Shown in pieces: positions 6,813 through 22,710 of a stretch of 64,000 nt of DNA. Source of the stretch: Dehalococcoidia bacterium (GTDB lineage Bacteria > Chloroflexota > Dehalococcoidia > Lucifugimonadales > UBA1127); NCBI GenBank assembly GCA_965116355.1, contig OZ220679.1, forward strand, positions 2,273,034 to 2,337,033. Direction: 5' to 3'. The number at the start of each line of letters is the position of its first letter. Within the stretch, counting starts at the first letter, position 1. The position numbers and the translations under genes are program-made. The notes beneath the pieces were generated by a model, which saw only the letters and a program-made list of their open reading frames with translations, did no database searches and was not told the DNA's origin.

Positions 6813-6838
6813 CGGCGGGCAGTGGGTGGACATAATCC

Positions 6839-7693
6839 ATGACGTTCTGGAACACCTGGACATTCGACCCGCTGACCCTTGCCGGGTTGGCCGTGCTTTT
6901 CCTTCTCTACACGCGCGGGCTGTGGCGCAGCCGCGGTCGCTCAGGCAACCTCTTCCCGTGGTGGCGGCCGACCTCGTTCTACGCGGGGTGGACGGCGCTG
7001 CTGATGGGGGCGGTGTCGCCCATCGACGGGCTTTCGGGCGACCTCTTCCTCATGCACATGGTGCAGCACATGCTCATGATGATGGTGGGGCCGCCGCTGA
7101 TCCTCGTCGGGGCGCCGGTGGTGCCGGTGCTGCGGGGGCTGCCGGGGGTGCTGCGGGCGGACCTCGCCATCCCGCTGCTGCAGATGCGGCGGGTCCGCAA
7201 GGTACTGAGCTTCCTTGCGTCGCCGCTGACGGCATGGCTGGTCTTCGTGTTCACGGTGTGGATATGGCACATTCCGGCGCTGTACAACGAGGCGGTCACG
7301 AACGAGTGGCTGCACTTCCTGCAGCACGTCATGTTTACGAGCGCGGCCGTCTTCTTCTGGTGGAGCGTCATCGACCCGGTGCCGCTGAAGCCGCGGCTGG
7401 CGTACCCGCTGCGGCTGCTGTACCTGTTCCTCGCGACGCTGCAGAGCACGGTGCTGGCGGCGATCATCACGCTCTCGGAAGAGGTGCTGTACACGTACTA
7501 CGTGAGCGTGCCGCGGCTGTGGGGGCTGACGCCGGGGGAGGACCAGATGATCGCGGGGCTCATCATGTGGATACCGGGGGCGGGAATCTACTTCACGGTG
7601 CTGACGGTATTGTTCTTCGTCATGCTGTACAAGGACGACCAGCGCATGCGGCGGCTGGAGGGGCGGCCGGTGAGCGGGCCGCGGCGGTGGTGA
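6839..7693 (+). CDS. ctaG: Cytochrome c oxidase assembly factor CtaG (caa3-type, COG3336)
   Basis: Polytopic membrane protein with ...LFLMHMVQHMLMMMVGPPLILVGAP..., typical of Bacillus-type CtaG. It lies directly upstream of the oxidase structural genes. Confidence 0.8.
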   Translation: MTFWNTWTFDPLTLAGLAVLFLLYTRGLWRSRGRSGNLFPWWRPTSFYAGWTALLMGAVSPIDGLSGDLFLMHMVQHMLMMMVGPPLILVGAPVVPVLRGLPGVLRADLAIPLLQMRRVRKVLSFLASPLTAWLVFVFTVWIWHIPALYNEAVTNEWLHFLQHVMFTSAAVFFWWSVIDPVPLKPRLAYPLRLLYLFLATLQSTVLAAIITLSEEVLYTYYVSVPRLWGLTPGEDQMIAGLIMWIPGAGIYFTVLTVLFFVMLYKDDQRMRRLEGRPVSGPRRW

Positions 7694-7746
7694 GGGCGCC
7701 GCCGCGTTGACGGCGGCAAAACTTTGCGCGATTTTTCACCAACCCA

Positions 7747-7776
7747 TTGACTACGAAAGTTTCACGCCTATAGAAT
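7747..7776 (+). promoter_or_regulatory. Sigma-70-like promoter upstream of the oxidase structural genes
   Basis: TTGACT (7747-7752) plus a 16-nt spacer plus TATAGA (7769-7774). The alternative -10 is TAGAAT with an 18-nt spacer. It sits in a locally AT-richer intergenic stretch. Confidence 0.4.
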
Positions 7777-7902
7777 GGGGCTGCTGCAAAGGGGACTGTA
7801 CGGCTGTGCCAGCACGGGAGGCTCCCTGGCCCCCGACGCGAACAGCCTCTCAACGCTCATGGGGACGGCAGCAGCCGGTCACAACGACAATGAGAGAGGA
7901 CC

Positions 7903-9009
7903 ATGGCGAACCGAATACACATCCGCCCTAAGTCCCTGCTCGCACTCCTCGCCCTTGTAGTTTTGCCCATCCTCGCAGCCTGTGGCACCGTCGACTCGGC
8001 GCAGACCACGATCAACCCACAGTCGGACGTCGCACGGGAGATTCAGGGCACGTACGCATTCATCTTCTGGGTGTCCGTCGTGGTGTTCGTCGTCGTGGAA
8101 GGCGCGCTGGTGTACGCGGTGTTCCGCTACCGGCGCCGGGCGAACTCCGGCATCCCCAAGCAGACCGAGGGCAACATGGTCCTCGAAGTCACCTGGACGA
8201 TCATTCCCGCGTTGATCCTGGTCGCCATCGCGGTGCCGACGTGGATCACCATCTTCCGGACGGACGACATCCCCGAGGGGTCGTTCATCGTGAACGTCAC
8301 GGGCCACCAATGGTGGTGGGAAGTGGAGTATCCGGAGCTGCGCACGGGTGATGGCGACAACGAGGTCCGGCTGGTGACGGCCAACGAGATCCGGGTTCCG
8401 GCCGACCGCACGATCGGCTTCCACCTGGAGACGAACGACGTGCTGCACAGCTTCTGGGTGCCGCAGCTCTTCGGCAAGGTGGACCTGGTGCCGGGGCGGA
8501 CCAACACGGTGTGGTTCACGCCAGACGCTGATACGGCTGGCGAGGTGTTCCTGGGACAGTGCGTGGAGTTCTGCGGACTGTCGCACGCCAACATGCGGAT
8601 GCGCATTTTTGTCGACAGCCCGGATGACTTCGCGGCATGGGCCGACGGGATCCGCTCGCCGGCGCCGGAGGCCACGGGGCTGGCGGCGACGGGGCACGAG
8701 CTGTTCTCGTCAAAGGGCTGCACGGTGTGCCACAGCGTCAACGGGGACTACGAGGCTGCGGGCCAGCCACTATCGAGCGGGCGCATCCTGATCGGCCCCA
8801 ACCTGACGGGCTTCGGCTCTCGGACAACGCTGGCGGGGGCCATCCTGGAGAACAACACAGCGAACCTCTCGGCGTGGCTGGCCGAACCGGACGAGGTCAA
8901 GCCCGGCAACCTGATGTACCAGGAGGCCGCGGCATACACGCAACCGGAGCTGAGCCTGGCGAACGAGGACGTCACCGCTCTGGTAGCATATCTTCAGCAT
9001 TTGCAGTAG
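7903..9009 (+). CDS. ctaC: Cytochrome c oxidase subunit II with C-terminal cytochrome c domain (caa3-type)
   Basis: Lipoprotein-like signal (...LPILAAC) and two TM helices. CuA motif HSFWVP...CVEFCGLSHANM. C-terminal heme c motif GCTVCHSV with a downstream Met. Confidence 0.9.
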   Translation: MANRIHIRPKSLLALLALVVLPILAACGTVDSAQTTINPQSDVAREIQGTYAFIFWVSVVVFVVVEGALVYAVFRYRRRANSGIPKQTEGNMVLEVTWTIIPALILVAIAVPTWITIFRTDDIPEGSFIVNVTGHQWWWEVEYPELRTGDGDNEVRLVTANEIRVPADRTIGFHLETNDVLHSFWVPQLFGKVDLVPGRTNTVWFTPDADTAGEVFLGQCVEFCGLSHANMRMRIFVDSPDDFAAWADGIRSPAPEATGLAATGHELFSSKGCTVCHSVNGDYEAAGQPLSSGRILIGPNLTGFGSRTTLAGAILENNTANLSAWLAEPDEVKPGNLMYQEAAAYTQPELSLANEDVTALVAYLQHLQ

Positions 9010-9063
9010 CGCATTCGGGGGCGTAACGCCGGCTCGTCCGGCGCGGCGTTTGGAGGCGAATAC

Positions 9064-10914
9064 ATGGCAACGGCAGTTGGCGCAGTAGGGCACGCGGACC
9101 ACGACGCGTCCAAGAGCGGCGCGTGGAGCTGGATTACCACTGTCGACCACAAGCGCATCGGCATCCTGTACGGGGTGTCGGCCGTCTGTTTCTTCCTGGT
9201 CGGCGGCTTCGAGGCGCTGATCATCCGACTGCAGCTGGCGGAGGCGGAGAGCGACCTCATCGGCGCGGGCCTGTTCAACCAGCTCTTTACGATGCACGCG
9301 CTGACCATGATTTTCCTTGCGATCATGCCCCTGGGAGCGGCGTTCTTCAACTACATCGTGCCGCTGCAAATTGGGGCTCGGGACGTCGCGTTCCCGCGGC
9401 TGAACGCGCTGAGCTACTGGCTGTTCCTCTTTGGCGCGCTCCTGCTGAACTCGAGCTTCATCTTCGGCGGCGCGCCCGACGTGGGCTGGTTCGCCTACGC
9501 CAACCTGACGGCGACGGAGTACTCGCCGAGCAGCGCCGTCGACTTCTTCGCCCTCGGCATGCTGGTGCTGGGCGTGTCATCGCTGGCCGCGGCGCTGAAC
9601 TTCATCATCACCATCCTCAACATGCGGGCCCCGGGCATGACGCTGATGCGGATGCCGGTGTTCACGTGGATGACACTGGTAGTGTCCTTCCTGCTTGTGT
9701 TCGCGCTGCCAATCCTCACGGTGGGGTTGGTGCAGCTCCTGTTCTGGCGGGAGTTCGGGATGCCGTTCTTCTCGGCGGAGGCGGGCGCCGACCCGCTGCT
9801 GTGGCAGCACATCTTCTGGCTGTTCGGCCACCCCGAGGTGTACATCCTGATCCTGCCCGCGATGGGCATTGTGTCCGAGATCCTGCCGACGTTCTCGCGG
9901 AAGCCGCTTTTCGGGTACTCGACGGTGGTGTTCGCGGGCGTGGCCATCGGCTTCATGGGCTTCGCGGTGTGGGCGCACCACATGTTCACGGTGGGGCTGG
10001 GGTCGATCGCGCTGGCGGCATTCTCGGCAAGCACGATGCTGATCGCGGTGCCGACGGGCATCAAGATCTTCAACTGGATCGCGACGCTGTGGGGCGGGTC
10101 GATCCAGTTTACGACGGCGATGCTGTTCGCGCTGGGGTTCGTGGCGCTGTTCGTCATCGGCGGACTGAGCGGCGTGATGCACGCCTCGCCGCCTGTCGAC
10201 ACGCAGCAGCAGGACACGTACTTCGTGGTGGCGCACCTGCACTACGTGTTGTTCGGCGGGAGCATCATGGGGCTGTTCGGCGGCATCTACTACTGGTTCC
10301 CGAAGATGACGGGCCGCCTGTTGAGCGAGGCCATTGGCAAGTGGCAGTTCTGGCTGATGTTCATTGGCATGAACGTGACCTTCGGGCCAATGCACCTGGT
10401 GGGCATCGACGGCATGCCGCGGCGCATCAACACGTACGACGAGAGCATGGGCTGGGAGCTGCTGAACCAGATTGAGACGGTGGGCGCGTTCATCATCGCG
10501 CTGAGCGTCGTGCTCTTCCTGTTCAACTTCTTCAAGAGCGTCAAGTCAGGCGAGCCGGCGGGCGACGACCCGTGGGACGGCCGCACGCTGGAGTGGGCCA
10601 TCCCTTCGCCGCCGCCGGAGTACAACTTCGCGCGGATCCCGGTGGTGCACAGCAACGAGCCGTTCTGGGACCAGAAGCACCCGGAGCTGAAGCACGACGC
10701 GCCGCCGGCCGTCGCGGGGGGCGCGGATGAAGAGGCGGAGGAGTCCATCCACATGCCGAACCCATCCTACTGGCCGATCGTCGTAGCATTGGGGACGGCG
10801 CTGGCGGCGGGACTGGTCATCATCAACCCGTGGCTGGCGTCCATCGGCGCGGTCATTGGGCTGCTGGGCATCTACGGATGGGTCTTCGAGCCGGCAGCGC
10901 CCGAGCACCACTAG
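9064..10914 (+). CDS. ctaD: Cytochrome c oxidase subunit I
   Basis: Canonical heme-copper oxidase subunit I sequence (...WFFGHPEVYILILP..., ...HHMFTVG..., ...VAHLHYVL...). Confidence 0.95.
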   Translation: MATAVGAVGHADHDASKSGAWSWITTVDHKRIGILYGVSAVCFFLVGGFEALIIRLQLAEAESDLIGAGLFNQLFTMHALTMIFLAIMPLGAAFFNYIVPLQIGARDVAFPRLNALSYWLFLFGALLLNSSFIFGGAPDVGWFAYANLTATEYSPSSAVDFFALGMLVLGVSSLAAALNFIITILNMRAPGMTLMRMPVFTWMTLVVSFLLVFALPILTVGLVQLLFWREFGMPFFSAEAGADPLLWQHIFWLFGHPEVYILILPAMGIVSEILPTFSRKPLFGYSTVVFAGVAIGFMGFAVWAHHMFTVGLGSIALAAFSASTMLIAVPTGIKIFNWIATLWGGSIQFTTAMLFALGFVALFVIGGLSGVMHASPPVDTQQQDTYFVVAHLHYVLFGGSIMGLFGGIYYWFPKMTGRLLSEAIGKWQFWLMFIGMNVTFGPMHLVGIDGMPRRINTYDESMGWELLNQIETVGAFIIALSVVLFLFNFFKSVKSGEPAGDDPWDGRTLEWAIPSPPPEYNFARIPVVHSNEPFWDQKHPELKHDAPPAVAGGADEEAEESIHMPNPSYWPIVVALGTALAAGLVIINPWLASIGAVIGLLGIYGWVFEPAAPEHH

Positions 10915-10924
10915 AGGGGAAGTC

Positions 10925-11539
10925 GTGACAACTAACTCCACGGCACACGAGAGTCACCTGGCGACCACGACGGGGCTTGACCACCGCAAGCTCCTGATGT
11001 GGCTGTTCCTAGCGTCCGAGTGTCTCTTCTTCGGCTCGCTCATCGCGACGTTCCTGCTGTACAAGGACGCGAGCGTGGTGGGGCCCCAGCCGCACGAGAT
11101 TCTGAACATCCCGGTGACGAGCACGAGCACGTTCGTGCTGCTGACGAGCTCGCTGGCGATGGTGCTGGCGCTCGCGGCGGTGCAGCGCAGCGACGTGGTG
11201 GCGGCACGGTTCTGGATATTCGCGACGGCGTTCCTGGGCGCGACGTTCCTCGGCTTCCAGGTGTACGAGTTCTACGAGTTCGTCATCCACGGACTGACGC
11301 CCAAGACCAACGTCTTTGGCGCGAGCTTCTTCACACTGACCGGCTTCCACGGCGCGCACGTGACCGTTGGCGTCATCTGGCTGATGTCGCTCTTCTTCTA
11401 CTCGTTCAGGCACGGGTTACCTGCGGAAAAGAGCCTGGACGTGGAGCTGGCGGGACTGTACTGGCACTTCGTGGACATTGTCTGGGTCGTCATCTTCACG
11501 GTGGTGTACCTGATCGGCACCCTGCCGCCGGAAGTTTAG
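10925..11539 (+). CDS. ctaE: Cytochrome c oxidase subunit III
   Basis: GTG start at 10925, just after the ctaD stop and a GAGGGGAAG motif. Typical subunit III motifs are present (...FFGSLI..., ...FHGAHVTVG..., ...YWHFVDIVWV...). Confidence 0.85.
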   Translation: MTTNSTAHESHLATTTGLDHRKLLMWLFLASECLFFGSLIATFLLYKDASVVGPQPHEILNIPVTSTSTFVLLTSSLAMVLALAAVQRSDVVAARFWIFATAFLGATFLGFQVYEFYEFVIHGLTPKTNVFGASFFTLTGFHGAHVTVGVIWLMSLFFYSFRHGLPAEKSLDVELAGLYWHFVDIVWVVIFTVVYLIGTLPPEV

Positions 11540-11565
11540 CGGCGCGGACCTCAAGGGGAGAGCGC

Positions 11566-11880
11566 ATGGCAGAGCACGAGCAACACGGGGCGCAAACGCA
11601 CGAGCAGGAGCACCCCTCACCTGCAAAATACATCCTGATAGCGACGTACCTGACGCTGATCACCATCTTCGAGGTGGCGATCTACTACGTCGAGGTGCTG
11701 CGGCCCGCTTTCCTCTGGATCTTCCTGGCGCTGTCCGCGCTCAAGTTCTACTACGTCGCAATGTTCTACATGCACCTCAAGTTCGATGCCCGGATATTCA
11801 GGCAACTCTTCATATTTGGCCTGGTGCTGGCGACGTTCATCATGGTGGCGTTGCTGCTACTGTTCGCCATCATCATCTAG
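11566..11880 (+). CDS. ctaF: Cytochrome c oxidase subunit IV (prokaryotic COX4/CtaF-like)
   Basis: ATG 11566 follows AAGGGGAGAG. It is a small three-TM protein (...YILIATYLTLITIFEVAIYY...LKFYYVAMFYMHLKFD...) in the position of subunit IV. Confidence 0.7.
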   Translation: MAEHEQHGAQTHEQEHPSPAKYILIATYLTLITIFEVAIYYVEVLRPAFLWIFLALSALKFYYVAMFYMHLKFDARIFRQLFIFGLVLATFIMVALLLLFAIII

Positions 11881-11946
11881 CAGACAAACCTTGCGCGCCG
11901 TCCGATCCACAGGGACCCTCCCGCACCAGCGCACAGGTCGTGTGCC

Positions 11947-13785
11947 GTGAGCGATTCTTCACACCGCAGCCTGCGTATCCTGCTGGCCGTCACCGTTGCG
12001 GCGACGTTCGGACTGATTACGCTGGGCGGAGTCGTGCGAGCGACGGAGTCAGGCCTCGGCTGCCCGGACTGGCCCCTCTGCCACGGGCAGATCATTCCCC
12101 CCTTCGAGTATCACGTCCTCATCGAGTACTCGCACCGGCTTGTTGCGAGCGTCGTCGGGGCGCTGGTGGTGGCGTGCGCGGTCCTGGTGTGGGTAAAGCA
12201 CCGGGAGTCGACGGGGCTGAAGCGGCTGATGGCAGTCGCCGTGGCCGCGCTGGCGGTGCAGGTTGTGCTGGGCGGCATCACGGTGCTGACGGAGCTGCCG
12301 GCGCCCATCGTGACGGCGCACCTGTTCGCGGCGGAAACGCTCTTCGCGATGCTCATCGTGGCGCTGCTGATCGCGCGGCCGTCGCCGGCGACGGTGGGGG
12401 GCGTCGGCGAGGAGCGGCACCCGTACTTCAACACGGTCCTCTTGATGGCGGCGACGTCGATGGTGATCCTGCTGTCGGGGACGTACATCGTCGGGAGCGG
12501 GGCGAGCACGATCTGCCCGTCGTGGCCGCTGTGCACGAGCGACTGGCTGCCGAACTTCGGGCTGCAGTGGGAGCACATGGCGCACCGGGTGATCGCGGGC
12601 GTTGGCGGGCTGTACATCATCGTGGCGGCGGTGCAGGCGCGGCGGTACAAGGCGCAGTCGCGAGCGCTGGCGGGGATGGGGATGGGCGCGGCGGCGCTGG
12701 TGGTCGCGCAGGTGCTGGCGGGGGCGATGAACCCGTGGTTCCAGTTCGACGAGTGGGTACGCGTCCTGCACCTGAGCCTGGCATCGGCGCTGTGGGGGCA
12801 CCTGGTGGCGATGGCCGTTGTGTCGGCGCGGATGCGTCCGGAGGCGGCAGAGCTTGCGGGGGGCGGCGGCGCAGAAGACAGCGAGCCGACAGCGGCGAAC
12901 GAGGGGGTGAAGGGCAGCTCGCTGCGGGTGGTCATCGGGGACTACGTGGCGCTGACGAAGCCGCGGGTGATGTCGCTGCTGCTGGTGACGGCGTTCGGCG
13001 GCATGGTGCTAGCGGCCGAGGGGTTGCCGGGCGCGGGGCTCATCGCGACGGTGATCGCCGGCGGGGCGCTGGCGTCCGGGGGCGCGAGCGCGCTCAACCA
13101 CTGGCTCGACCGGGACATCGACCAGAAGATGGAGCGGACGTCGACGCGGCCAGTCGCGAGCGAGCGGGTCAGCGGGCGGCAGGCGCTGGTGTTCGGGCTC
13201 GTGCTGAACGTGCTGGCGTTTGCGCTGCTGTGGTGGGGGGCGAACCTGCTGGCGGCGTTGCTCGCGATGGCGGGGTCGGTCTTCTACGTGCTGGTGTACA
13301 CCAAGTGGCTGAAGCGGTCGACGGCGCAGAACATCGTCGTCGGCGGGGCAGCAGGCGCGGTGCCGCCGCTGGTGGGGTGGGCCGCGGTGACGGGCGGGCT
13401 GACGCTGCCGGCGTTCTACCTCTTCGCGATCATCTTCTTCTGGACGCCGCCGCACTTCTGGGCGCTGGCGCTGCTCATCCGGAAGGACTACGCCGAGGCG
13501 GGGGTGCCGATGCTGCCGGTGGTCGCGGGGGAGGAGAGCACGCGCCGGCATATCCTGCTGTACACGCTGGCGCTAACGATGCTCTCGCTGCTGCTGTACC
13601 TGGCGACGGACAGCCTGGGGCTGGTGTACCTGATCAGCGCTACGGCGCTCGGGCTGGGGTTCGTCGCGTTCGCGGTGCGGCTGTTCAAGCGGACCGGGCC
13701 TCGGGCGGCGGCGCCTATCTACCGGTACTCGCTGCTGTACCTGGCGCTGCTGTTCCTGGTGATCATGGGGGACGGGGCGTTGTAG
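11947..13785 (+). CDS. ctaAB: Fused heme A synthase (CtaA/COX15, N-terminal) and protoheme IX farnesyltransferase (CtaB/CyoE, C-terminal)
   Basis: The N-terminal half has ...GGVVRATESGLGCPDWPLCHG... and a second ...ICPSWPLC... pair (CtaA). A linker follows around nt 12830-12930. The C-terminal half has ...YVALTKPRVMSLLLVT..., ...NHWLDRDIDQKMERT..., ...FFWTPPHFWALAL... (CtaB). It is one uninterrupted 612-codon frame. Confidence 0.85.
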   Translation: MSDSSHRSLRILLAVTVAATFGLITLGGVVRATESGLGCPDWPLCHGQIIPPFEYHVLIEYSHRLVASVVGALVVACAVLVWVKHRESTGLKRLMAVAVAALAVQVVLGGITVLTELPAPIVTAHLFAAETLFAMLIVALLIARPSPATVGGVGEERHPYFNTVLLMAATSMVILLSGTYIVGSGASTICPSWPLCTSDWLPNFGLQWEHMAHRVIAGVGGLYIIVAAVQARRYKAQSRALAGMGMGAAALVVAQVLAGAMNPWFQFDEWVRVLHLSLASALWGHLVAMAVVSARMRPEAAELAGGGGAEDSEPTAANEGVKGSSLRVVIGDYVALTKPRVMSLLLVTAFGGMVLAAEGLPGAGLIATVIAGGALASGGASALNHWLDRDIDQKMERTSTRPVASERVSGRQALVFGLVLNVLAFALLWWGANLLAALLAMAGSVFYVLVYTKWLKRSTAQNIVVGGAAGAVPPLVGWAAVTGGLTLPAFYLFAIIFFWTPPHFWALALLIRKDYAEAGVPMLPVVAGEESTRRHILLYTLALTMLSLLLYLATDSLGLVYLISATALGLGFVAFAVRLFKRTGPRAAAPIYRYSLLYLALLFLVIMGDGAL

Positions 13786-14318: not shown

Positions 14319-14537
14319 CTAGGAGTAGGGGAGGAGCTTCCGGAGGCGCTTGACGGCGCCCATCGGGACGGGTTCCTTCTGGTCGTAGCTCTGCTTCAGC
14401 GCCTGGCTCTTCTTTCGGCGGAGGTGGCTCCGCTGGCCGTGCAGGCGCAGCATGCGGCCGCCCGCGGTCACGTGGATGCGGGAAGCCGACGCCTTATGCG
14501 TCTTAAGCTTGTACTTCTTCGGCTGCTTGTTCGCCAA
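14319..14537 (-). CDS. rpmI: 50S ribosomal protein L35
   Basis: MANKQPKKYKLKTHKASASRIHVTAGGRMLRLHGQRSHLRRKKS... is canonical L35. It lies between infC and rplT. Confidence 0.95.
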   Translation of the reverse strand: MANKQPKKYKLKTHKASASRIHVTAGGRMLRLHGQRSHLRRKKSQALKQSYDQKEPVPMGAVKRLRKLLPYS

Positions 14538-15096
14538 CGGGCTTCTCCTCCACGGCGGCCGCCTTGGCGGCCTTTGGCGCCGGCGCCGCTCCGGGCACCA
14601 GCACGATGTTCAATCTGCGGCCCTCCATGGCCGGCGGAGCCTCCAGCTTAGCCTCGTCCTTGAGCTGCTCGGCGACTCCGCGCAGGAGGGTCACACCGAG
14701 CTCCGGGTGGGATATCTCCCTGCCCCGGAAGAGGACGCTGACCTTGACCTTGTTGCCGTCGCCCAGGAGCTCCTGAATGCGGCGGACCTTGGAGGCGCGG
14801 TCGTGCTCCGCGATGCGGGGCCGGAAGCGCACCTCTCGTACGATGTTGGTCTTCTGTGTCTTGCGGGCCTCCCGCTCCCGCTTGGTCTGCGAGTAGCGGA
14901 ACCGCCCATAGTCGAGGAGCCGGCAAACGGGTGGGGTTGCGTTGGGAGACACCTCTACCAGGTCCAGGCCCTGCTCGCGCGCCATATTAATAGCCTCGAG
15001 CGTGGGGAGGACGCCCAACTGCTCACCCGCGTCCCCGATCACCCGGACTTCACGGACCCGTATTTGCTGGTTAATGCGGTAGTCTCTGCCCGCGAT
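14503..15096 (-). CDS. infC: Translation initiation factor IF-3, predicted non-AUG (ATC) initiation
   Basis: The track ORF starts at GTG 15042, but the conserved IF-3 N-terminus (...RINQQIRVREVRVIGDAGEQLG...) extends upstream in frame to ATC 15096-15094. That codon follows an in-frame TAA and sits 9 nt downstream of AGGAG. The 3' end overlaps the rpmI start by 35 nt. Confidence 0.9.
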   Translation of the reverse strand: MAGRDYRINQQIRVREVRVIGDAGEQLGVLPTLEAINMAREQGLDLVEVSPNATPPVCRLLDYGRFRYSQTKREREARKTQKTNIVREVRFRPRIAEHDRASKVRRIQELLGDGNKVKVSVLFRGREISHPELGVTLLRGVAEQLKDEAKLEAPPAMEGRRLNIVLVPGAAPAPKAAKAAAVEEKPVGEQAAEEVQA

Positions 15097-15158: not shown

Positions 15159-16133
15159 CTACGCCTGAACCGGCGTCCGTGCGGGGGCAGGGGTGTCGCG
15201 GTGCGCGATGCCGGTGAGGGCATCGACGGACGCCAACCCCTGGCGCACAAGATGTCGCTCGAGGCCGGCCATGACCTCGACGGGGGCGCGGGGGTTGGTG
15301 AAGTTAGCGGTGCCGATTTGGACCGCCGTCGCGCCGGCGTGGAGGTAGTCGAGGGCGTCGTCCGCCGACTCGATGCCACCTACGCCGATGACGGGGACGC
15401 TGACGGCTCGGTAGGTCTTGTAGACCATCGCGAGGGTGATGGGCTTGAGGGCGGGGCCGGAGACGCCGCCGGTCGCGGTGCCGAGGACGGAGCCGCCGGA
15501 GTCCCGGTCAAGGGCCATGCCGATGAGGGTGTTGGTGAGGGTGAGGGCGTGGGCGCCCGCGGCCTCGGCGGCCTGGGCGATGGGGACGATGTCGGTGACG
15601 TTGGGGGAGAGCTTGGCGAGCACGGGGAGGGACGTGGCGCCGACCACCGCGCGGACGACGTCGGCGGTGAGCTGGGGGCTCTGAGCGAAGTCGAGGCCGC
15701 CGGCGACGTTGGGGCAGCTCACGTTGATCTCGATGCCGGCGACGCCAGGGGCGCCGTCGACGGCGGCGGCGAGGGCGTGGAAGTCGTCGACGCTCTCGCC
15801 CGCGATGCTGAGGATGACGGGGACCTGCCACGCGGGCCACTTCGGCGCGTAGTCGCGGAGGACGGCGTCGATACCCGGGTTGGCGAGGCCGATGGAGTTC
15901 ATGGTCCATGCGCGGGAGTGGGCGATGCGCGGCCTCGGGTTGCCGAGGCGCTCATGGACGGTGGTGGTCTTGGCAACGACGGCGCCGAGGGACTGCCAAT
16001 CGCTACCGGCCGGCATGCCCTCGCCGTAGCCGTCCTGGCCGAAGGTGCCGCAGGCGATCATGACGGGCGCGCGCAGCCACAGCCCTGACGGGTGGCCGGG
16101 GGCGACGTTGATGGACATGTCAGGTTTCGGCAT
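15159..16133 (-). CDS. pyrD: Dihydroorotate dehydrogenase, class 1-like catalytic subunit
   Basis: ...NSIGLANPGID..., ...IEINVSCPNV..., ...GGVSGPALKPI..., ...IGVGGI... The start is uncertain: ATG 16133 is preferred, and the track start is 16196. Confidence 0.85.
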   Translation of the reverse strand: MPKPDMSINVAPGHPSGLWLRAPVMIACGTFGQDGYGEGMPAGSDWQSLGAVVAKTTTVHERLGNPRPRIAHSRAWTMNSIGLANPGIDAVLRDYAPKWPAWQVPVILSIAGESVDDFHALAAAVDGAPGVAGIEINVSCPNVAGGLDFAQSPQLTADVVRAVVGATSLPVLAKLSPNVTDIVPIAQAAEAAGAHALTLTNTLIGMALDRDSGGSVLGTATGGVSGPALKPITLAMVYKTYRAVSVPVIGVGGIESADDALDYLHAGATAVQIGTANFTNPRAPVEVMAGLERHLVRQGLASVDALTGIAHRDTPAPARTPVQA

Positions 16134-16204
16134 GAGCACCTCGCCTTCGATTGTTCCACAGGCGCAGGGGGCGGGCAAGGGCATAGGCGACGACACAAGC
16201 GCGG

Positions 16205-16352: not shown

Positions 16353-16382
16353 TTGACGCTGTCTGCGGGCCGCAACTATGCT
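16353..16382 (+). promoter_or_regulatory. Sigma-70-like promoter positioned for a leaderless transcript of the 16389 gene
   Basis: TTGACG (16353-16358) plus an 18-nt spacer plus TATGCT (16377-16382). The ATG at 16389 lies 7 nt after the -10 element, and no Shine-Dalgarno is present. Confidence 0.35.
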
Positions 16383-16388
16383 TAACTT

Positions 16389-16814
16389 ATGTTACTCCCG
16401 GGCATAGCCACTCGCCGGAGCGCGAGCGCCGTGTACATGGCGCTGTTTATGGCGGTGGTGTGGGCGGCGCTGTTCCCGGCACTCGCGCCGACGCTGGACC
16501 ACCACGCCGTTGAGCGGCACCCGCAGCACGGCCACCTCTTCCCGGGCGGTGTCTTTGTCGACCACGAACACGGCTCGCTGGCGGACCACACGCACAGCGG
16601 CGGCGTGCCTGTCCCGGCGGACGGCGTCGTGATCCTGCCCACCAGCGGCGACATCACGAGCGCCAGCGTCTTCAACCTGGTATCCATGGGCGAGGCGGCG
16701 GCGCTGGCGCTGCTGGCACCCGCCCTGTTCGTCATCATTCGACTGCCCTGGCGCGACGCGCTCTCGCGGTTCACGCCGGGAGTCGACACACCCCCGCCCC
16801 GGCCCGCCCTCTGA
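16389..16814 (+). CDS. Hypothetical His-rich bitopic membrane protein
   Basis: Has an N-terminal TM (AVYMALFMAVVWAALFPALAP). A His-rich segment follows (DHHAVERHPQHGHLFPGGVFVDHEHGSLADHTH). A second TM (AAALALLAPALFVIIRL) comes after that. I recognise no family. It is the first gene of a co-directional four-gene cluster. Confidence 0.5.
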   Translation: MLLPGIATRRSASAVYMALFMAVVWAALFPALAPTLDHHAVERHPQHGHLFPGGVFVDHEHGSLADHTHSGGVPVPADGVVILPTSGDITSASVFNLVSMGEAAALALLAPALFVIIRLPWRDALSRFTPGVDTPPPRPAL

Positions 16815-16882: not shown

Positions 16883-17473
16883 TTGCCGGAAGAAGGCGGG
16901 AGAATGGCCTCCACCGGTCCACCGATCCTTTGTGCGCGGGTGGCGCTCGGTTTTGTGCTGGGCATTGTGCTGCTCGTGCAGTCGGCTGCGCCGGCGCTCG
17001 CCAACGGCGTGCACGTCGGCAGCCGCGAGGTGTTCGCGGGCGAGGCCGGGGTGTACCGAATTGCAGTGACCACGACGCCGGTCGAGGGTGCGATGCACTT
17101 CATCATCCTGCTCTCGAAGGCGGATGACGGGGGAACGGTCGAGGACGCGGCGATCACCTTGCGCGGCGACTTCGTGGACGGCGAGGGGGTCTCAGCCGGG
17201 CCCGTGGAAGGGTACGGGACGATCGAGGGGCCGCTGTGGTACGCGGCGGACCTGGAGGTCGCGCCGGCGGGGCTGTGGGAATTCACGCTGACCGTGGACT
17301 CGGCGCTTGGGCAAGAGAGCGTGACCTTTGGCGTGCCGGTGCTGGAGCCGGGCGGCGGGAACCTGACGCTGTTCGCGCTGATCATCATCGCGCTGGCGAT
17401 ACTCGGGTTTACGCTTGGCAATCGAATGTTTGGGCGGCGTCGCCGTGCGGGTGGGCGCCGTTCGCAGGGGTGA
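16883..17473 (+). CDS. Hypothetical secreted beta-rich (FixH/YtkA-like Ig-fold?) protein with C-terminal TM anchor
   Basis: Signal peptide ...LLVQSAAPALA|NGVHVG. A roughly 130-aa beta-rich domain follows (...GVYRIAVTTTPVEGAMHFIILL...WEFTLTVDS...). Then comes a TM (LTLFALIIIALAILGFTL) and an Arg-rich tail. The start is TTG 16883 or ATG 16904. Confidence 0.6.
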   Translation: MPEEGGRMASTGPPILCARVALGFVLGIVLLVQSAAPALANGVHVGSREVFAGEAGVYRIAVTTTPVEGAMHFIILLSKADDGGTVEDAAITLRGDFVDGEGVSAGPVEGYGTIEGPLWYAADLEVAPAGLWEFTLTVDSALGQESVTFGVPVLEPGGGNLTLFALIIIALAILGFTLGNRMFGRRRRAGGRRSQG

Positions 17474-17486
17474 AACGAGGGAAACG

Positions 17487-18260
17487 ATGAAGGCAACGAG
17501 AATCCTCGCGCTGGCGGCGGCGGCTGCGCTTTCGCTGGCGCTTGTAGCGTGCGACGGGGATGGCGCGAGCGAGCCGACCGAGCGGACCATCACCATCGAG
17601 TTGGAGCGGGGGCAGATTGCTGGAGACGCTTCTAACTGGCGGGTCAACGCCAACGACGAGGTCACGCTGGTTGTGCGCTCGGACGAGCCGGTGAACTTCC
17701 ACCTGCATGGGTACGACCTGGAGCAGGACGTGACTCCCGAGGATCCGGCAACCTTCAATTTCACGGCGAACGCCACGGGGAGCTTCCCAATCACGATTCA
17801 CCGGTCAGATGTACCGGCGTCCATGAGCGACCACGATGCTGGGCATGACAAGGCGATCGAGGGGCCCGCGGGGATGAGCGTCGCGGTGGAGGCGACGCCG
17901 GACTCGGTGTCCGGGCTGAACCTGCGGATCTCGACGTCTAGCTTCACCTTCTCGCCGGAGGAGGTCGGGGGCGAGCACGTGCAGGGTCACGGGCACGCGC
18001 ACGTCTACGTGGACGGCGTGAAAGAGGGCAGGGTGTACGGCAACCACTATCACCTGGGCTCGGTGGGGCCCGGCGAGCACACTGTTCGCGTGACGCTGAA
18101 CGCGAACACACACGCCGAGTATGCCGTCGGCGGGCAGCTGGTCGAGCACTCGATCAGCGTCACGGTGCCCAGCGCGGAGGAAGCGGGCCACGAGCACGGC
18201 GACGGCGCGGATACGACGACCGTCGAGGCGGAGCTTGGCCGGTTTGAGGTGAGGCCCTAG
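17487..18260 (+). CDS. Lipoprotein with N-terminal cupredoxin-like domain and His-rich C-terminal domain
   Basis: ATG 17487 gives MKATRILALAAAAALSLALVAC (lipobox). Domain 1, ...ITIELERGQI...NDEVTLVVRSDEPVNFHLHGYDLE...ATGSFPITIH, resembles EfeO-type cupredoxin-like domains. Domain 2 is His-rich (...HVQGHGHAHVYVDGVKEGRVYGNHYHL...HEHGDG). Confidence 0.65.
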   Translation: MKATRILALAAAAALSLALVACDGDGASEPTERTITIELERGQIAGDASNWRVNANDEVTLVVRSDEPVNFHLHGYDLEQDVTPEDPATFNFTANATGSFPITIHRSDVPASMSDHDAGHDKAIEGPAGMSVAVEATPDSVSGLNLRISTSSFTFSPEEVGGEHVQGHGHAHVYVDGVKEGRVYGNHYHLGSVGPGEHTVRVTLNANTHAEYAVGGQLVEHSISVTVPSAEEAGHEHGDGADTTTVEAELGRFEVRP

Positions 18261-18281: not shown

Positions 18282-19838
18282 GTGAAGCTACTGAACAGGC
18301 TGTCCATCATAGCGGTCGCCGCGGGGCTGGCGCTGGCCGTCTCCCCCGCGGCGGCCCACGGGTTCGGCGAGCGCTACGACCTGCCGGTGCCGCTGGGCTT
18401 GTACGTCTTGGGCGCGGGGGCGGCGGTGGCCCTGTCCTTCGTCGTCATGGGGGTCTTTGTGCGCGGCGGGGAAGCCGGCCACGGCTACCCTCGGTACAAC
18501 CTGCTGCGATGGCGGGTCGTGCGAGCGGCGGCGCACCCGGTCGTCGTGACGTTCGTACAGGCGGCGTCGGTGGCGACGCTGGCGCTGGTAGTCGTCGCAG
18601 GCATCATCGGCGACTGGGAGCCGACGAAGAACATCTCGCCAACGCTGGTGTGGATCATCTGGTGGGTAGGCATGGCGTACGTGTGCGCGCTGGTCGGGAA
18701 CGTCTGGCGGCTGCTGAACCCATGGAACGCGACGTTTTCGTGGGCGGAACGCGCCTACGGAGGACTCGGAGGAGAGGGCGTACTTGGGATGGGGTTGCGC
18801 TATCCGGCTGGGTTGGGCGTGTGGCCGGGAATGCTGGCGTTCCTGGTGTTCGCGTGGGTGGAGATCATCTACATCGAATCGTCGCTGCCGGGGCGGATCA
18901 CGCAGTTCGCCCTGGCCTACACGGTATGGATGTGGGCGGGCATGTACCTCTTTGGCCGTGAAGTCTGGCTGCGGCATGGCGACGCTTTCTCGCTAGTGTA
19001 CGGATTCCTGGCGCGGTTCTCGCCGACGGAGATTCGGGTGACGGACGCGTCGGTGTGCGCGGACTGCCCGGCGGAGTGTGCGGACGCCGGCGAGGGCCTC
19101 GCCGGGGATGACGGATGCGTCGACTGCGCGGAGTGCTTCACGGAAGCGCCGGCGGTGCAGCGGGAGATCAACCTGCGGCCGTACGTGGTGGGGCTGCTGC
19201 GCAGCGAGGGGCGCTCGCTGTCCGTGATGATGTTCGTGTTGCTGCTGCTGTCGACGGTGAGCTTCGACGGCTTCTCCGCGACGCCGGTATGGGGGCGCAT
19301 GTTCAATGCGCTTTTCGACGTGACACGGGACGCGCACATCGTGGGGAGCATCGGGCTCTTCGGATTCTTCGCGGCGGTCGTCGCGGTGTACATCATGTTT
19401 TCGGGATTCATGTCGATGGCGAGCGGCTACCGGCTGCTCTCGGTGGAGACGGGGCAGGTCTTCGTCCTGACGCTGATCCCGATTGCGCTGGCTTACCACC
19501 TGGCTCACTTCTTCTCGTTCCTGCTGATCCAGGGGCAGAGCATCATCCCGCTGGCGTCGGACCCGCTTGGGTTCGGATGGGACATCTTTGGGACCATGGG
19601 ATACGAGATCAACATCGGCATCATCGGGGCGCGGACGGTGTGGCTGGTGTCGGTGGCGGCGATCGTCGTGGGGCACGTGGCGGCGGTGTACCTGGCGCAC
19701 GTGACAGCGCTGCGCGCGATCCCGGAGCGGCGGTACGCGCTTCGCAGCCAGTACCCGATGCTGGTGCTGATGGTGGCGTACACGATGGTCAGCCTGTGGA
19801 TCCTGGCGCAGCCGATCGTGGAGCCGAGCGCGGGGTGA
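18282..19838 (+). CDS. Hypothetical polytopic membrane protein (about 10-11 TM) with a Cys-rich loop
   Basis: Signal peptide ...LAVSPAAA|HGFGERYDLPVPL, so the mature N-terminal residue is predicted to be His. There are many TM helices and a central loop CADCPAECADAGEGLAGDDGCVDCAEC with two CxxCxx(x)C clusters. I recognise no family. Confidence 0.7.
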   Translation: MKLLNRLSIIAVAAGLALAVSPAAAHGFGERYDLPVPLGLYVLGAGAAVALSFVVMGVFVRGGEAGHGYPRYNLLRWRVVRAAAHPVVVTFVQAASVATLALVVVAGIIGDWEPTKNISPTLVWIIWWVGMAYVCALVGNVWRLLNPWNATFSWAERAYGGLGGEGVLGMGLRYPAGLGVWPGMLAFLVFAWVEIIYIESSLPGRITQFALAYTVWMWAGMYLFGREVWLRHGDAFSLVYGFLARFSPTEIRVTDASVCADCPAECADAGEGLAGDDGCVDCAECFTEAPAVQREINLRPYVVGLLRSEGRSLSVMMFVLLLLSTVSFDGFSATPVWGRMFNALFDVTRDAHIVGSIGLFGFFAAVVAVYIMFSGFMSMASGYRLLSVETGQVFVLTLIPIALAYHLAHFFSFLLIQGQSIIPLASDPLGFGWDIFGTMGYEINIGIIGARTVWLVSVAAIVVGHVAAVYLAHVTALRAIPERRYALRSQYPMLVLMVAYTMVSLWILAQPIVEPSAG

Positions 19839-20074: not shown

Positions 20075-21196
20075 TTACCGGATGATCGTCCGGCGCAGGA
20101 ATGGCGGGAGATCGAGGTCGGTAGAGGCCTCGCTGCGATTGCTGAGGAAGCGGCTGTTAAAGGAGTCAGGGTCAGAGGTGAACCGCGTCATGTCCTCGTC
20201 GTCGGAGATGCCGGTTGCGATGAGGGTCACGCGGGCGACGTCGCTGCCGGGCTCGCCGTTGACCATGCCGAAGAAGATCATGGCACGGTGGTCGACCTGC
20301 TGGGCGATGTAGGCGCCGGCCTCGTTGACCTCGCCGAGGGTCATGTTCGGGCCGCCGGTGACGTTGAAGAGCACGCCCTTGGCGCCCTCGAGCGAGAGGT
20401 CGAGCAGCGGATTGTTGACGGCCTGCTTGGCAGCCTGGAGCGGCCCGCCCTTGCCGTGGCCCTCGCCGATGGCCATCATCGCGCGGCCGGGGACCTTCAT
20501 GATCGCCTTGACGTCCGCGAGGTCGACGTTGATCTCGCCGGGGAGGTTGACCAGCTCGGCGACGGAGAGCACGCCGAGCATGACGGCGTCGTCGGCCATG
20601 CGGAGGGCGTCATCCATGGACGTGTCGCCGCGGAAGAGGCTCAGAAGCCGCTCATTGTGGATGACGATGAGGTTGTCCACGTAGGGCTTGAGCTGGGAGA
20701 TGCCGGAGTGGGCCGTCTCCAGCCGCCTGGCGCCCTCAAAGCTGAAGGGGGTGGTGGCGACGGCGACGACGAGGGCGCCCGACTGCCGGGCGATGTCGGC
20801 GACGACGGGAGCGGCGCCGGTGCCCGTGCCGCCGCCCATGCCGATGGCAAGGAAGACGAGGTCAGCGCCAGCGACCACGTTCTTGAGCGCCTGCTTGGAC
20901 TCGCTGGCGGCCATGGCGCCCTTCTCGGGGTCGCCGCCGGCGCCCAGGCCGCGGGTGAGGTGCTCACCGATGTGGATGACGTGCGCGCCCTCAACCTGAC
21001 CCAGCGCCTTGAGGTCCGTGTTGACGCACGCGTAGGTGACGCCAGGCACGGGCCTCGCTCGCATCATGCGCATGATTGCGTTGGAGCCGCCGCCGCCCAC
21101 GCCAATAGCGCATATCGACGCGGGACCAGCCTGCGACAGGGGCATGTTGGGCAGGGGAATGACCTGCGTAGTAGAACGAGACCGCTTACTCGGCAT
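20075..21196 (-). CDS. ftsZ: Cell division protein FtsZ
   Basis: ...IGVGGGGSNAI..., ...GMGGGTGTGAAPV..., and the C-terminal conserved peptide ...DLDLPPFLRR. Confidence 0.95.
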   Translation of the reverse strand: MPSKRSRSTTQVIPLPNMPLSQAGPASICAIGVGGGGSNAIMRMMRARPVPGVTYACVNTDLKALGQVEGAHVIHIGEHLTRGLGAGGDPEKGAMAASESKQALKNVVAGADLVFLAIGMGGGTGTGAAPVVADIARQSGALVVAVATTPFSFEGARRLETAHSGISQLKPYVDNLIVIHNERLLSLFRGDTSMDDALRMADDAVMLGVLSVAELVNLPGEINVDLADVKAIMKVPGRAMMAIGEGHGKGGPLQAAKQAVNNPLLDLSLEGAKGVLFNVTGGPNMTLGEVNEAGAYIAQQVDHRAMIFFGMVNGEPGSDVARVTLIATGISDDEDMTRFTSDPDSFNSRFLSNRSEASTDLDLPPFLRRTIIR

Positions 21197-21488
21197 AGCT
21201 AAACCCTCCAGTGGGTTTCGGTGCTGAAGAAGCCCGAAACGCTTTCAGTCCTACTACTTTAGGCATGAAACCAGCGATGTGTCAAGTCATGGGTTGTGAC
21301 GTCACAAAACTCGCGGGCGCCTGAATGTCCTCAGGGAGCCGCCCAATTGTACCTGTTGGGCCATTGTCCGAATGGGAAATCCGGCAGTGAGGGTGCGGTG
21401 GTTGGGGGATTCGCACCGTGCACGTTGATTGTTGGGGTCGCGCGCCGGTGCTAAGGTGCGCGGGAGGACGATTTGGGAGGAGAGGAAA

Positions 21489-21785
21489 ATGGCGGGATAC
21501 CTGCTGGTGCTGGACCACGAGATCAAGGACGAAGCGCTCTTCGCCGAGTTCCTGAAGAGTGTCGGCGACAATATGGAGTCCTTCGGCGGGAAGTACCTGG
21601 TGAAGGGCGGCAGACACATGGTCATGGACGGCCATTGGGCGCCAGTGCGCATCGCGCTGGTCGAGTTCGAGAGCGCGAACGGCGCGCGGCGGTGGCTCGA
21701 CTCGCAGGAGTACGCAGCGCTGGGCGAGATGCGCCGGTGGGCGGCCGACGCCACGGTGATCGTGTTGGAGGGGGTTGAGGGGTAG
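21489..21785 (+). CDS. DUF1330 domain protein
   Basis: ATG 21489 follows GGGAGGAGAGG. MAGYLLVLDHEIKDEALFAEF...FGGKYLVKGG...RIALVEFESANGARRWLDSQEY matches the DUF1330 pattern. Confidence 0.7.
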   Translation: MAGYLLVLDHEIKDEALFAEFLKSVGDNMESFGGKYLVKGGRHMVMDGHWAPVRIALVEFESANGARRWLDSQEYAALGEMRRWAADATVIVLEGVEG

Positions 21786-22041: not shown

Positions 22042-22710
22042 CTACCCCTGCGCCTCAGCGAGGCGAACGATCTCTGCGAGGGTGATGTCCGCCATTGAAT
22101 TCAGGGTTAGGTCTGCGCCGGCATCGCCCATGCGGCGGGTGACGTCGTTGGGGACGGCGACGGTGAAGATGCCGGCTGCCCGGGCGGCCTGCACTCCCCT
22201 CTGAGAGTCCTCGAACGCTATGGCCTCCGTCGGGGCGACGTCCAGCGCGCGCAATGCGGCCAGATAGACGGCGGGGTCGGGCTTGCCGACGCCGACATCG
22301 GCATCATCGCGGCAACGGACTGCGTCGAAGTGGTGAAGGAGGCCGATGCGCTCAAGGTGGCCCGCCACCCATTGCCGTGAAGAGCTGGATGCCACCGCCA
22401 ACCGAAAGCCCATGCCGTGGGCATCCGTGATGCACTCGATGACTCCCGGGAGTACGGGCTGCGCTTCGACCATCTCGACGTGGCGGGCCCGCCGGCGGGC
22501 GGTGAGGGCCGCGGCGTCCAGGGAGCGGCCGGTGAGCCGCTCGAGGAGCCCAACAATGTCGATGCGCTCTCCGCGCCCGACGTTTTCATCCCACCGTTCC
22601 GGGGTCAGCTCCTGGCCATACTCCCGGAAGATTTCCTGCCAGCTCTGGAGCGCCGGTGTTTCCGTTTCGACGATGAGGCCGTCGAAGTCGAAGATGAGGG
22701 CGCGGATCAT
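22042..22710 (-). CDS. HAD-superfamily hydrolase (subfamily IA, beta-phosphoglucomutase-like)
   Basis: MIRALIFDFDGLIVETE carries the DxDG motif I. Also present are ...VASSSS... and ...GKPDP...FEDS..G... Confidence 0.85.
   Translation of the reverse strand: MIRALIFDFDGLIVETETPALQSWQEIFREYGQELTPERWDENVGRGERIDIVGLLERLTGRSLDAAALTARRRARHVEMVEAQPVLPGVIECITDAHGMGFRLAVASSSSRQWVAGHLERIGLLHHFDAVRCRDDADVGVGKPDPAVYLAALRALDVAPTEAIAFEDSQRGVQAARAAGIFTVAVPNDVTRRMGDAGADLTLNSMADITLAEIVRLAEAQG

Follow-up and report, generated by a model that had tools for sequence, protein, structure and literature searches.

The subject of this study is a membrane protein of a Dehalococcoidia bacterium, here called T, whose gene lies in a window of 64,000 nucleotides (the whole stretch of DNA analysed, positions 2,273,034 to 2,337,033 of contig OZ220679.1), directly downstream of a gene for a lipoprotein, B. 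We propose that T is the membrane component of an undescribed and widespread module for the acquisition or delivery of copper, with B and T as its core, a proposal that in our judgement stands evenly between right and wrong. B and T together are most likely a new copper-handling module, which would pair a periplasmic metallochaperone with a membrane protein that makes use of its N-terminal histidine. The Chloroflexota version of the module is proposed to include two additional proteins, the YtkA-like protein A and the small, His-rich membrane protein C. The parts of T that matter for its N-terminus are the following.

18282..19838, plus strand: T, a polytopic membrane protein of 518 amino acids; GTG start, intact open reading frame.
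18282..18356, plus strand: predicted Sec signal peptide of T, residues 1-25, MKLLNRLSIIAVAAGLALAVSPAAA; cleavage expected after AAA.
18357..18395, plus strand: mature N-terminus of T, HGFGERYDLPVPL, from the translation; the codon of His26 is 18357-18359.

A Shine-Dalgarno-like GAGG is found about 6 nt upstream of the T start. The first 25 residues show the n/h/c layout of a Sec signal peptide (charge, hydrophobic core, small residues), and no twin-arginine motif was found in the leader. A preliminary description of this DNA had predicted a signal peptide with a histidine at the start of the mature chain; the sequence, which reads AAA|H at this point, bears that out. Conservation was counted in an alignment of 354 T relatives, in which the denominators vary with the coverage of the position. 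Position 26 (+1) is His in 337 of 342 relatives, so that His1 is conserved among the homologs, and position 25 (-1) is Ala in 323 of 340 (Gly in 12, Ser in 3); position -3 is mostly Ala or Val, and the remainder of the leader is unconserved. In the T family nothing is more strongly conserved than this +1 histidine, at a signal-peptidase site that is itself conserved. It is followed in the mature arm by G27 (264 relatives, with Ala in 72), R31 (305), Y32 (299), D33 (293), P35 (331) and P37 (338). The N-terminal motif is kept at about 30% identity, in relatives from Mycobacterium, Sulfitobacter and Neorhizobium. If the free N-terminal histidine is functional, the retention over such distances of a peptidase site with His precisely at its +1 position is what one would expect. 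We propose that the mature N-terminus of T serves as a metal-capturing arm of 12 residues in front of the first transmembrane helix.

One rare member of the family, P0148, carries Tyr in place of the N-terminal His (…GWA|YGFDQPYEWP) and represents a natural variant.

The arrangement had been compared in the preliminary description to the His-brace copper sites of CopC and of lytic polysaccharide monooxygenases (LPMOs). The conserved +1 His and the copper-dominated gene neighbourhoods described below speak for this comparison; the fold does not, as T is all-helical and lacks the soluble beta-sandwich that bears the site in CopC, YcnI, LPMOs and PmoB (CuB). In sites of this class Cu is bound by the N-terminal NH2, the imidazole of His1 and usually a second His, with a T-shaped geometry. 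Since the +1 His is conserved and the neighbourhood is dominated by copper-handling proteins, a His-brace-type copper site in T is a reasonable inference.

The AlphaFold2 model of T (built on 23 homologues) has a predicted local distance difference test score (pLDDT) of 80.7 and a predicted template modelling score of 0.83, and shows ten long helices after the leader, in line with the 10-11 transmembrane segments counted earlier. When the model helices are taken as transmembrane segments, the predicted inside loops hold on average 19.3 Lys plus Arg residues and the outside loops 3.9 (average over 340 sequences). By the positive-inside rule, the N-terminus and the SDPxGxGW loop of T are predicted to face the periplasm and its six-Cys module, discussed below, to face the cytoplasm, which answers on the level of prediction the earlier question of the side on which that loop lies. 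The conserved residues are distributed over this body as follows.

18861..18863, plus strand: E194, near-invariant (339 of 352 relatives), at the predicted periplasmic end of transmembrane helix 4.
19266..19268, plus strand: D329, in an FDG motif (347 of 351), at the predicted periplasmic end of helix 6.
19494..19508, plus strand: Y405-H406-L-A-H409 in helix 8; Y405 in 340 of 346, H409 in 341 of 347, and the variable H406 in 274 of 347.
19557..19565, plus strand: S426-D427-P428, the start of the conserved periplasmic loop SDPxGxGW; D427 in 339 of 347.
19674..19700, plus strand: H465-x7-H473 in helix 9; H465 in 337 of 345, H473 in 341 of 348; helix limits from the AlphaFold2 model.

The near-invariant set comprises N117, W124, E194, D329, Y405, H409, Q419, S426-D427-P428, W433, H465 and H473. 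E194, D329, D427, H409, H465 and H473 are each conserved at 96-99%, and persist at about 30% identity. In the AlphaFold2 helices H465 lies in mid-membrane and H473 in the cytoplasmic half, two helical turns apart. Conservation at both membrane faces, combined with histidines in mid-membrane, suits a translocation path.

A full hidden Markov model search of 1.84 billion cluster representatives (clusters at 50% identity) found 6,241 representatives of the T family at E <= 1e-3 and 1,496 at E <= 1e-30, and a word-indexed search with T gave more than 3,392 matches. In a genome scan, for which the SDPxGxGW loop motif was used as the pattern, relatives were found in Dehalococcoidia and other Chloroflexota, in Alpha-, Beta- and Gammaproteobacteria (e.g. 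Bradyrhizobium sp. Pha-3), and in Rubrobacter, Rokubacteria, Methylomirabilia, Nitrospiraceae and Tectomicrobia. A plasmid search added relatives on plasmids of Mycobacterium, Mycolicibacterium, Rhodococcus, Pseudonocardia, Rhizobium, Sulfitobacter and many haloarchaea. The body of T had been described as permease-like and unrecognised, and it indeed maps to no known transporter family: T matched no family in Pfam or NCBIfam and had no relative in the PDB by sequence or profile, and its model found no match among 350,542 PDB chains with Foldseek (best E = 0.46, TM-score <= 0.16). The T family is thus large, structurally unmatched and effectively unannotated.

A relationship to copper membrane proteins was considered and rejected for CopC-CopD, PmoC and Caa3_CtaG, with negative profile alignments. 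T has no Pfam match to CopD (PF05425), and hhalign gave a probability of 0.07% against seven CopC-CopD-cytochrome c proteins, and of 0.15% and 0.16% against PmoC and Caa3_CtaG, respectively. At the same profile level no internal repeat of the kind that marks secondary transporters with inverted-repeat architecture was detected between the two halves of T (residues 26-250 against 296-516, 348 sequences each, probability 0.2%).

T is the last gene of an apparent four-gene operon in the order C, A, B, T. A promoter-like site is found ahead of the operon at 16353-16382; a terminator scan downstream of T gave nothing convincing, and ftsZ follows there on the opposite strand. The partners of T are the following.

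16389..16814, plus strand: C, 141 amino acids, with two hydrophobic segments and a His-rich loop (DHHAVERHPQHGH...DHEHG...DHTH; LDHHAVERHPQHGHLFPGGVFVDHEHGSLADHTH); open reading frame, no family assignment.
16883..17473, plus strand: A, a secreted beta-rich domain with a C-terminal transmembrane anchor and an Arg-rich tail, YtkA-like.
17487..18260, plus strand: B, a cupredoxin-fold lipoprotein with the motif SDE-x4-FHLHGY ... H; weak PF13473 match and AlphaFold2 model.

The AlphaFold2 model of B (pLDDT 83.7) resembles, in Foldseek, the iron-system protein FtrB of Brucella (8vuk, TM-score 0.63) and the CuA domain of the ba3 oxidase (2cua, TM-score 0.55, root-mean-square deviation 2.8 A over 80 residues). 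B proteins share the motif SD-x5-H-x-H, usually with another His, and the lipobox Cys is their sole conserved Cys. Exact-sequence lookups with the T protein and with the protein P0001 returned no record, and the neighbourhoods of T were therefore taken from homologues (84 loci for the counts of A and B, about 86 for linkage to cox genes). B lies directly upstream of T in 56-59 of the 84 loci, and in most loci across Chloroflexota, Proteobacteria and Actinobacteria; a small B-like gene precedes T also on the mycobacterial and Pseudonocardia plasmids and on every further contig sampled. A is present in 33-39 of the 84 loci, mostly in Chloroflexota, and one of its homologues (locus L014) weakly matches YtkA (PF13115, E = 0.003). 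C is the first gene of the operon and occupies the same position in 10-14 related loci.

Within B, a domain of some 110 amino acids, 'GHAHVYVDG...LNANTH' (window positions 17835-18170), with weak matches of the DUF2846 and DUF4399 type, splits the cupredoxin fold. The domain occurs in zero, one or two copies in B homologues, and is probably metal-binding itself.

Every neighbour of T that can be assigned specifically to a metal is a copper protein (CopC, CopD, PCuAC, YtkA-like, YHS/HMA, copper membrane monooxygenase, Cox). In eight Dehalococcoidia loci a CopC-CopD-cytochrome c fusion (PF04234, PF05425, PF13442) occupies the slot of B directly in front of T. On a Sulfitobacter plasmid a PCu(A)C chaperone, fused to the 'GHAHxYxxG' insertion domain of B, is encoded beside a T homologue (L084, 5009-5767), and at locus L095 T adjoins a P-type ATPase, a YHS-domain regulator and an HMA-DsbD_2-cupredoxin protein. 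The plasmids of Mycolicibacterium chubuense NBB4 (pMYCCH.01, L091, 5479-8101) and M. dioxanotrophicus (L087, 4229-8137) carry sigC, a B-like cupredoxin and a T homologue beside hmoCAB. In NBB4 the B-T pair (MYCCH_RS28730 and MYCCH_RS28725) is located between hmoCAB, which encodes a copper membrane monooxygenase, and smoXYB1C1Z, which encodes a soluble di-iron monooxygenase, directly upstream of the latter. A metal-dependent switch between the copper and iron monooxygenases of this strain has been proposed (PMC8784404), and the pair could be a candidate copper-supply or copper-switch element. At locus L003, SCO1 and cox genes are found 0.7-8 kb downstream of T. In the window itself a caa3 oxidase cluster, with CtaG and CtaA-CtaB genes, lies 4.5 kb upstream of T.

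6826..13785, plus strand: complete caa3-type cytochrome c oxidase cluster, consisting of the next six genes.
6826-7710, plus strand: Caa3_CtaG-like gene.
7903-9009, plus strand: COX2 with a C-terminal cytochrome c.
9064-10914, plus strand: COX1 with a subunit-IV-like tail.
10856-11539, plus strand: COX3.
About 11640-11880, plus strand: COX4_pro.
11947-13785, plus strand: CtaA-CtaB fusion (haem A synthase / haem O synthase), 612 amino acids.

The CopC-CopD-cytochrome c loci contain a further anchored protein, the leader of which ends A|HD(H/D)R (L035, 3941-4693; L022, 2648-3754; L050, 3903-4628; L014, 3624-4511). It is beta-rich, with a C-terminal transmembrane anchor, an Arg tail and a predicted N-terminal His; the design is YcnI-like, and no Pfam match was found.

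We infer copper as the substrate, as well as the cleavage, the direction of transport and the path, from the features, conservation, predicted topology and neighbourhoods described above. In the mechanism that we propose, signal peptidase I would cut after AAA and leave His26 as the N-terminal residue of a 12-residue periplasmic arm, tethered to the first transmembrane helix. The free amine and the imidazole of this His1 could chelate Cu(II) in a site of the (mono)histidine-brace type, the ion being received from B or A, or from CopC where the CopC-CopD-cytochrome c protein replaces B. The arm would then dock and hand the metal to a periplasm-facing vestibule formed by E194, D329, Q419 and D427, from which a ladder through the bilayer might lead by way of H409 and H465 in mid-membrane to Y405 and H473 in the inner half. 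In the clade to which the present protein belongs, the cytoplasmic six-Cys module may, in an accessory role, accept, sense or reduce the metal. Its final recipients would be cuproenzymes of the membrane, among them haem-copper oxidases and copper membrane monooxygenases, and T would replace or accompany CopD in the module.

Several observations weigh against a copper module of this kind. The N-terminal arm has a pLDDT below 50 in the model. Cu(II), Ni(II) and Zn(II) are better matched than Cu(I) by a path lined with histidines; the T family conserves none of the Met-rich motifs that typify Cu(I) channels, and no energy-coupling element is evident in T. The loci with CopC-CopD already hold an importer, and T may do something else there. 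Cox genes are found within 7 kb of T in only 2 of about 86 loci, a frequency that also rules out T as a dedicated cox assembly factor in general. Distant T homologues on Sulfitobacter plasmid P4 (L084) and Neorhizobium pNCHU2750a (L086) are located together with LivKHMGF, a Liv-type ABC importer, in nicotinate-catabolism islands, and T of alphaproteobacteria is fused to an SBP-5-like domain; the copper model leaves both arrangements unexplained. Finally, several T homologues bear the UniRef label 'fenitrothion hydrolase', to which we return below.

A more far-reaching version of the copper proposal is possible, and we regard it as doubtful. T would then define a class of histidine-brace cuproproteins that is both new and integral to the membrane, its fold having no counterpart in the PDB and its own mature N-terminus forming the copper site. 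Together with the dedicated, His-rich B lipoprotein it would form an unrecognised, broad copper route across or into the membrane, which would supply haem-copper oxidases and copper membrane monooxygenases, with the six cysteines reducing copper in some clades.

The role of those cysteines bears on a first alternative, and their position in T is as follows.

19056..19136, plus strand: six-Cys module C259-x2-C262-x3-C266-x12-C279-x2-C282-x2-C285, from the translation, CADCPAEC-ADAGEGLAGDDG-CVDCAEC.

The six cysteines and both motifs had been recognised in the preliminary description, with a spacer of 13 residues; the correct length is 12. Among the 345 relatives that cover the region, six Cys are found in 199, seven or eight in 8, one to five in 33 and none in 105, so that the six positions are not conserved throughout the family. 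The consensus of the 199 is C-x2-C-x3-C-x(3-12)-C-x2-C-x2-C-[F/Y/W] in an acidic, Gly-rich context, and the 105 relatives without the loop show a clean deletion that leaves a linker of about five residues. Among the 50%-identity representatives listed that cover the region, 79 of 141 are without the loop. It is missing from most Alpha- and Betaproteobacteria, and most Dehalococcoidia, Rubrobacter, Nitrospiraceae and Rokubacteria have it. Within the T family the loop is an optional insertion, specific to certain clades. No correlation was seen between H406 and the loop, by eye in one alignment.

The likeness to a ferredoxin cluster, suggested earlier, is not supported. No Pfam model of the Fer4 clan, which covers the NapH, NosR, CcoG and FtrD type, matched the loop at E <= 1, the best NCBIfam match (FdxA) had E = 0.83 and the PDB ferredoxins E = 6-10, the cluster signature CxxCxxCxxxCP is not present in the loop of T, which has no conserved CP, and the loop is optional. 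As to what it binds, the loop could hold an Fe-S cluster or, equally, be a metal-binding module of the Zn2Cys6 or Cu(I)4-thiolate type. Sites for comparison are known from Gal4 for Zn2Cys6 and from the Ace1/Ctr1 type for Cu(I)-thiolate.

As the preliminary description suggested, T may couple redox chemistry to the translocation of metal. That T is a redox protein spanning the membrane, or a cupric reductase, appears unlikely to us. Such a protein would have an Fe-S centre in the Cys module, a His-ligated haem or copper in helices 8 and 9 and periplasmic copper at His1; its electrons, in a scheme just as unlikely, would reduce Cu(II) to Cu(I) or be exchanged with B, as a cupredoxin, or with CopCD through its cytochrome c domain. 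Functional precedents are CcoG, a cupric reductase of the polyferredoxin kind, and, from FtrABCD, FtrD. The six conserved Cys on the predicted cytoplasmic side and the mid-membrane His on adjacent helices fit this description, the periplasmic partner (a cupredoxin fold, or CopCD with a cytochrome c domain) is a potential electron carrier, and one T homologue (P0071) bears the JGI name 'polyferredoxin'. The Cys module is, however, deleted in 105 of 345 relatives and decayed in 33, in which the rest of T and the B partner are retained. As about one third of the relatives lack the loop and others have decayed to one to five Cys, redox chemistry by way of the loop is not the core mechanism of the family, and the loop is ruled out as its core Fe-S centre. 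Moreover, the loop shows neither a Fer4-type match nor the cluster signature, the three invariant transmembrane His are too few for two bis-His haems, and B, in which the lipobox Cys is the only conserved one, lacks a Cys ligand for type-1 copper.

The label 'fenitrothion hydrolase' leads to a second alternative, which we rate as equally unlikely. T would be a membrane-embedded metalloenzyme with an active site of His1, H409, H465 and Asp/Glu, either a hydrolase or an oxidase of the His-brace type, whose substrate would be lipophilic or periplasmic. The Liv-type ABC (ATP-binding cassette) transporter next to it would, in some Proteobacteria, import the product, a detail no more probable than the enzyme. 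The UniRef name is found on homologues from Rubrobacter, Ramlibacter and Piscinibacter, and BCAM2542 of B. cenocepacia carries the name FedA (PMC3417382). A novel organophosphorus hydrolase gene of strain NF100 has been published, according to its citation in PMC3768572, and catalytic histidine braces are known in LPMOs (PMC10952591). T homologues, in addition, are encoded in catabolic islands beside ABC importers, and beside monooxygenase clusters.

The UniRef name was apparently propagated from FedA of Burkholderia sp. NF100 (Tago et al. 2006, Microbes Environ 21:53), and is attached to clear T relatives with the N-terminus AHGFGQR(Y/F)DLPLPL; NCBI calls the same proteins 'hypothetical protein'. 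FedA itself is a putative member of the T family, its name having been seen on homologues as a propagated label, and full-text searches of the literature turned up no account of the FedA protein. An ancient family that occurs in haloarchaea and in Chloroflexota from marine, sponge and subsurface habitats cannot have a xenobiotic phosphotriesterase activity as its native function; the hydrolysis of phosphotriesters might be incidental to a Cu(II)/Zn(II) site that is exposed. The partners that are conserved belong to the metal-trafficking type rather than to enzymes related to a substrate, and a periplasmic active site would need neither H473, in the cytoplasmic half, nor the cytoplasmic loops that are conserved. 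The name FedA accounts neither for the copper-type partners nor for the distribution of the T family.

A permease for Ni, Co, Zn or Fe, resembling NikM/CbiM or HupE/UreJ, or an iron permease like FtrABCD/EfeUOB with B in the role of FtrB, seems more improbable still: the N-terminal amine, His and transmembrane His make an N-rich site that suits Ni(II)/Co(II) as well, HupE/UreJ-2 fusions bind both Cu and Ni (PMC12537917), the fold of B is near that of Brucella FtrB from a ferrous-iron uptake system (PMC11966278), and the combination of Ig-like protein, cupredoxin and membrane protein bearing a Cys-rich loop has its parallel in FtrA/B/C/D, but genes for urease, hydrogenase, B12 or iron regulation do not recur in the neighbourhoods, where the neighbours assignable to a metal are all copper proteins, and T has no Pfam match at E <= 1 to HupE/UreJ or CbiM/NikM (PF04955, PF13795, PF01891), no FTR1 (EfeU, FtrC) Pfam match and no RExxE, only single conserved Glu residues (E194, E250).

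A number of further observations were made around T homologues. Proteobacterial and Methylomirabilia T proteins have a C-terminal extension of about 400 amino acids, predicted to be periplasmic (L058, 6905-9640; L030, L045, L057, L070, L076, L079; L009). It has no Pfam match and resembles PDB 7fi3_A, an 'ABC-type dipeptide/oligopeptide transport system' (E = 4e-12). The alphaproteobacterial extended T follows a Liv-type ABC permease, two ATPases and an unassigned gene of 375-393 amino acids; the 393-residue product of this gene, upstream of B, showed no similarity to the C-terminal extension of T at the same locus. Among the genes of the nicotinate-catabolism islands are those for 6-hydroxynicotinate reductase and for nicotinate dehydrogenase NicAB / the xanthine-dehydrogenase family. 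A Kelch beta-propeller protein is encoded directly downstream of one T homologue (L093, 5978-6949), and a 'galactose oxidase early set domain' protein is found near another in Pseudonocardia (L089, 10919-13318); neighbours of the Kelch and galactose-oxidase type may be copper radical oxidase clients.

The operon in the window is flanked by housekeeping genes on both sides, as follows.

13865-14230, minus strand: rplT.
14503-15042, minus strand: infC.
15159-16196, minus strand: dihydroorotate dehydrogenase.
20075-21196, opposite strand to T: ftsZ.
21429-21785: DUF1330.
22042-22710: HAD hydrolase.
22766-24184: class II fumarase/aspartase-type lyase.
24959-28588: fused double ABC exporter, 1,209 amino acids.

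The import of copper into bacteria and its delivery to membrane cuproenzymes are poorly understood. To our knowledge, the known players CopCD/YcnJ, CcoA, PCuAC, Sco and CtaG/CtaK leave many phyla uncovered. The T family, for which there is neither a Pfam model nor a structure nor a reliable name, is represented in environmental groups of high abundance (Dehalococcoidia of the sea and of sponges, Rokubacteria, Nitrospiraceae) and in cultured hosts (Bradyrhizobium, Rubrobacter, Variovorax, Mycolicibacterium), and the existence of such culturable hosts makes genetic tests directly feasible. One of the homologues from such hosts is WP_132687972 of Rubrobacter taiwanensis. If B and T are indeed a copper module, they would explain how copper is fed to cytochrome oxidases and to copper monooxygenases of the hydrocarbon and ammonia type. 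T would then add a membrane-embedded example to the histidine-brace repertoire, and the probably misleading annotation 'fenitrothion hydrolase' would be corrected. Should T be a membrane histidine-brace protein, it would fill a gap in the picture of how bacteria import copper and mature their cuproenzymes.

Among the known systems, the closest parallel to the copper module proposed here is with CopC-CopD and its relatives. In B. subtilis YcnJ, which combines CopC, CopD and YtkA, imports Cu(II) together with YcnI and feeds the haem-copper oxidases (PMC13344008, PMC12362106), and the assembly of CuA involves YtkA/CtaK as well as the YtkA domain that YcnJ contains (PMC13344008). The components of the T module resemble those of YcnJ plus YcnI gene for gene. 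Both CopC-CopD/YcnJ-YcnI (YobA-YebZ in E. coli) and T bring together a periplasmic copper-binding partner and a polytopic protein with conserved transmembrane His, and both are tied to a YtkA-like domain and to the biogenesis of haem-copper oxidases; in the eight loci mentioned above the two are direct neighbours. CopC and YcnI, and by prediction T, use the N-terminal His exposed by cleavage as a ligand of Cu(II). Unlike in CopC, however, this His is located in T on the membrane protein itself and not on a soluble beta-sandwich, and, unlike in CopC-CopD, the partner of T is a cupredoxin-fold lipoprotein with SD-x5-HxH, and many T proteins carry the six cytoplasmic Cys.

A second parallel is offered by permeases with a tethered N-terminal histidine. 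The N-terminal Met-His arm of NikM/CbiM forms the Ni/Co site. In Ang-HupE/UreJ-2 and NikM/CbiM, as by prediction in T, a His-bearing N-terminus that is exposed by cleavage and covalently joined to a permease would capture the metal for it, and His1 is conserved at nearly 100%. The His of Ang-HupE sits on a folded Ig-like domain, whereas that of T sits on an arm of 12 residues, which brings T nearer to NikM/CbiM. The N-terminal-His 'anglerase' domains Ang-1 and Ang-2, fused to HupE/UreJ-2, bind Cu2+ with a Kd of 62-74 nM (PMC12537917). T shares neither a Pfam nor a Foldseek match with HupE_UreJ or CbiM, its fold is unrelated to theirs, and it is larger (10 transmembrane helices) and has a dedicated cupredoxin partner.

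Finally, FtrABCD/EfeUOB and the T module both assemble a beta-sandwich protein, a Cup-II-like cupredoxin, a permease and a Cys-rich, 'polyferredoxin'-like element. In contrast to FtrABCD, T is without FTR1 and RExxE, and its Cys element is a short, optional loop rather than a polyferredoxin protein. The ligands in B are Asp and HxH, with or without a further His, whereas Asp/His and Glu have been reported for FtrB (PMC11966278). FtrABCD serves iron; the neighbours of T point to copper.

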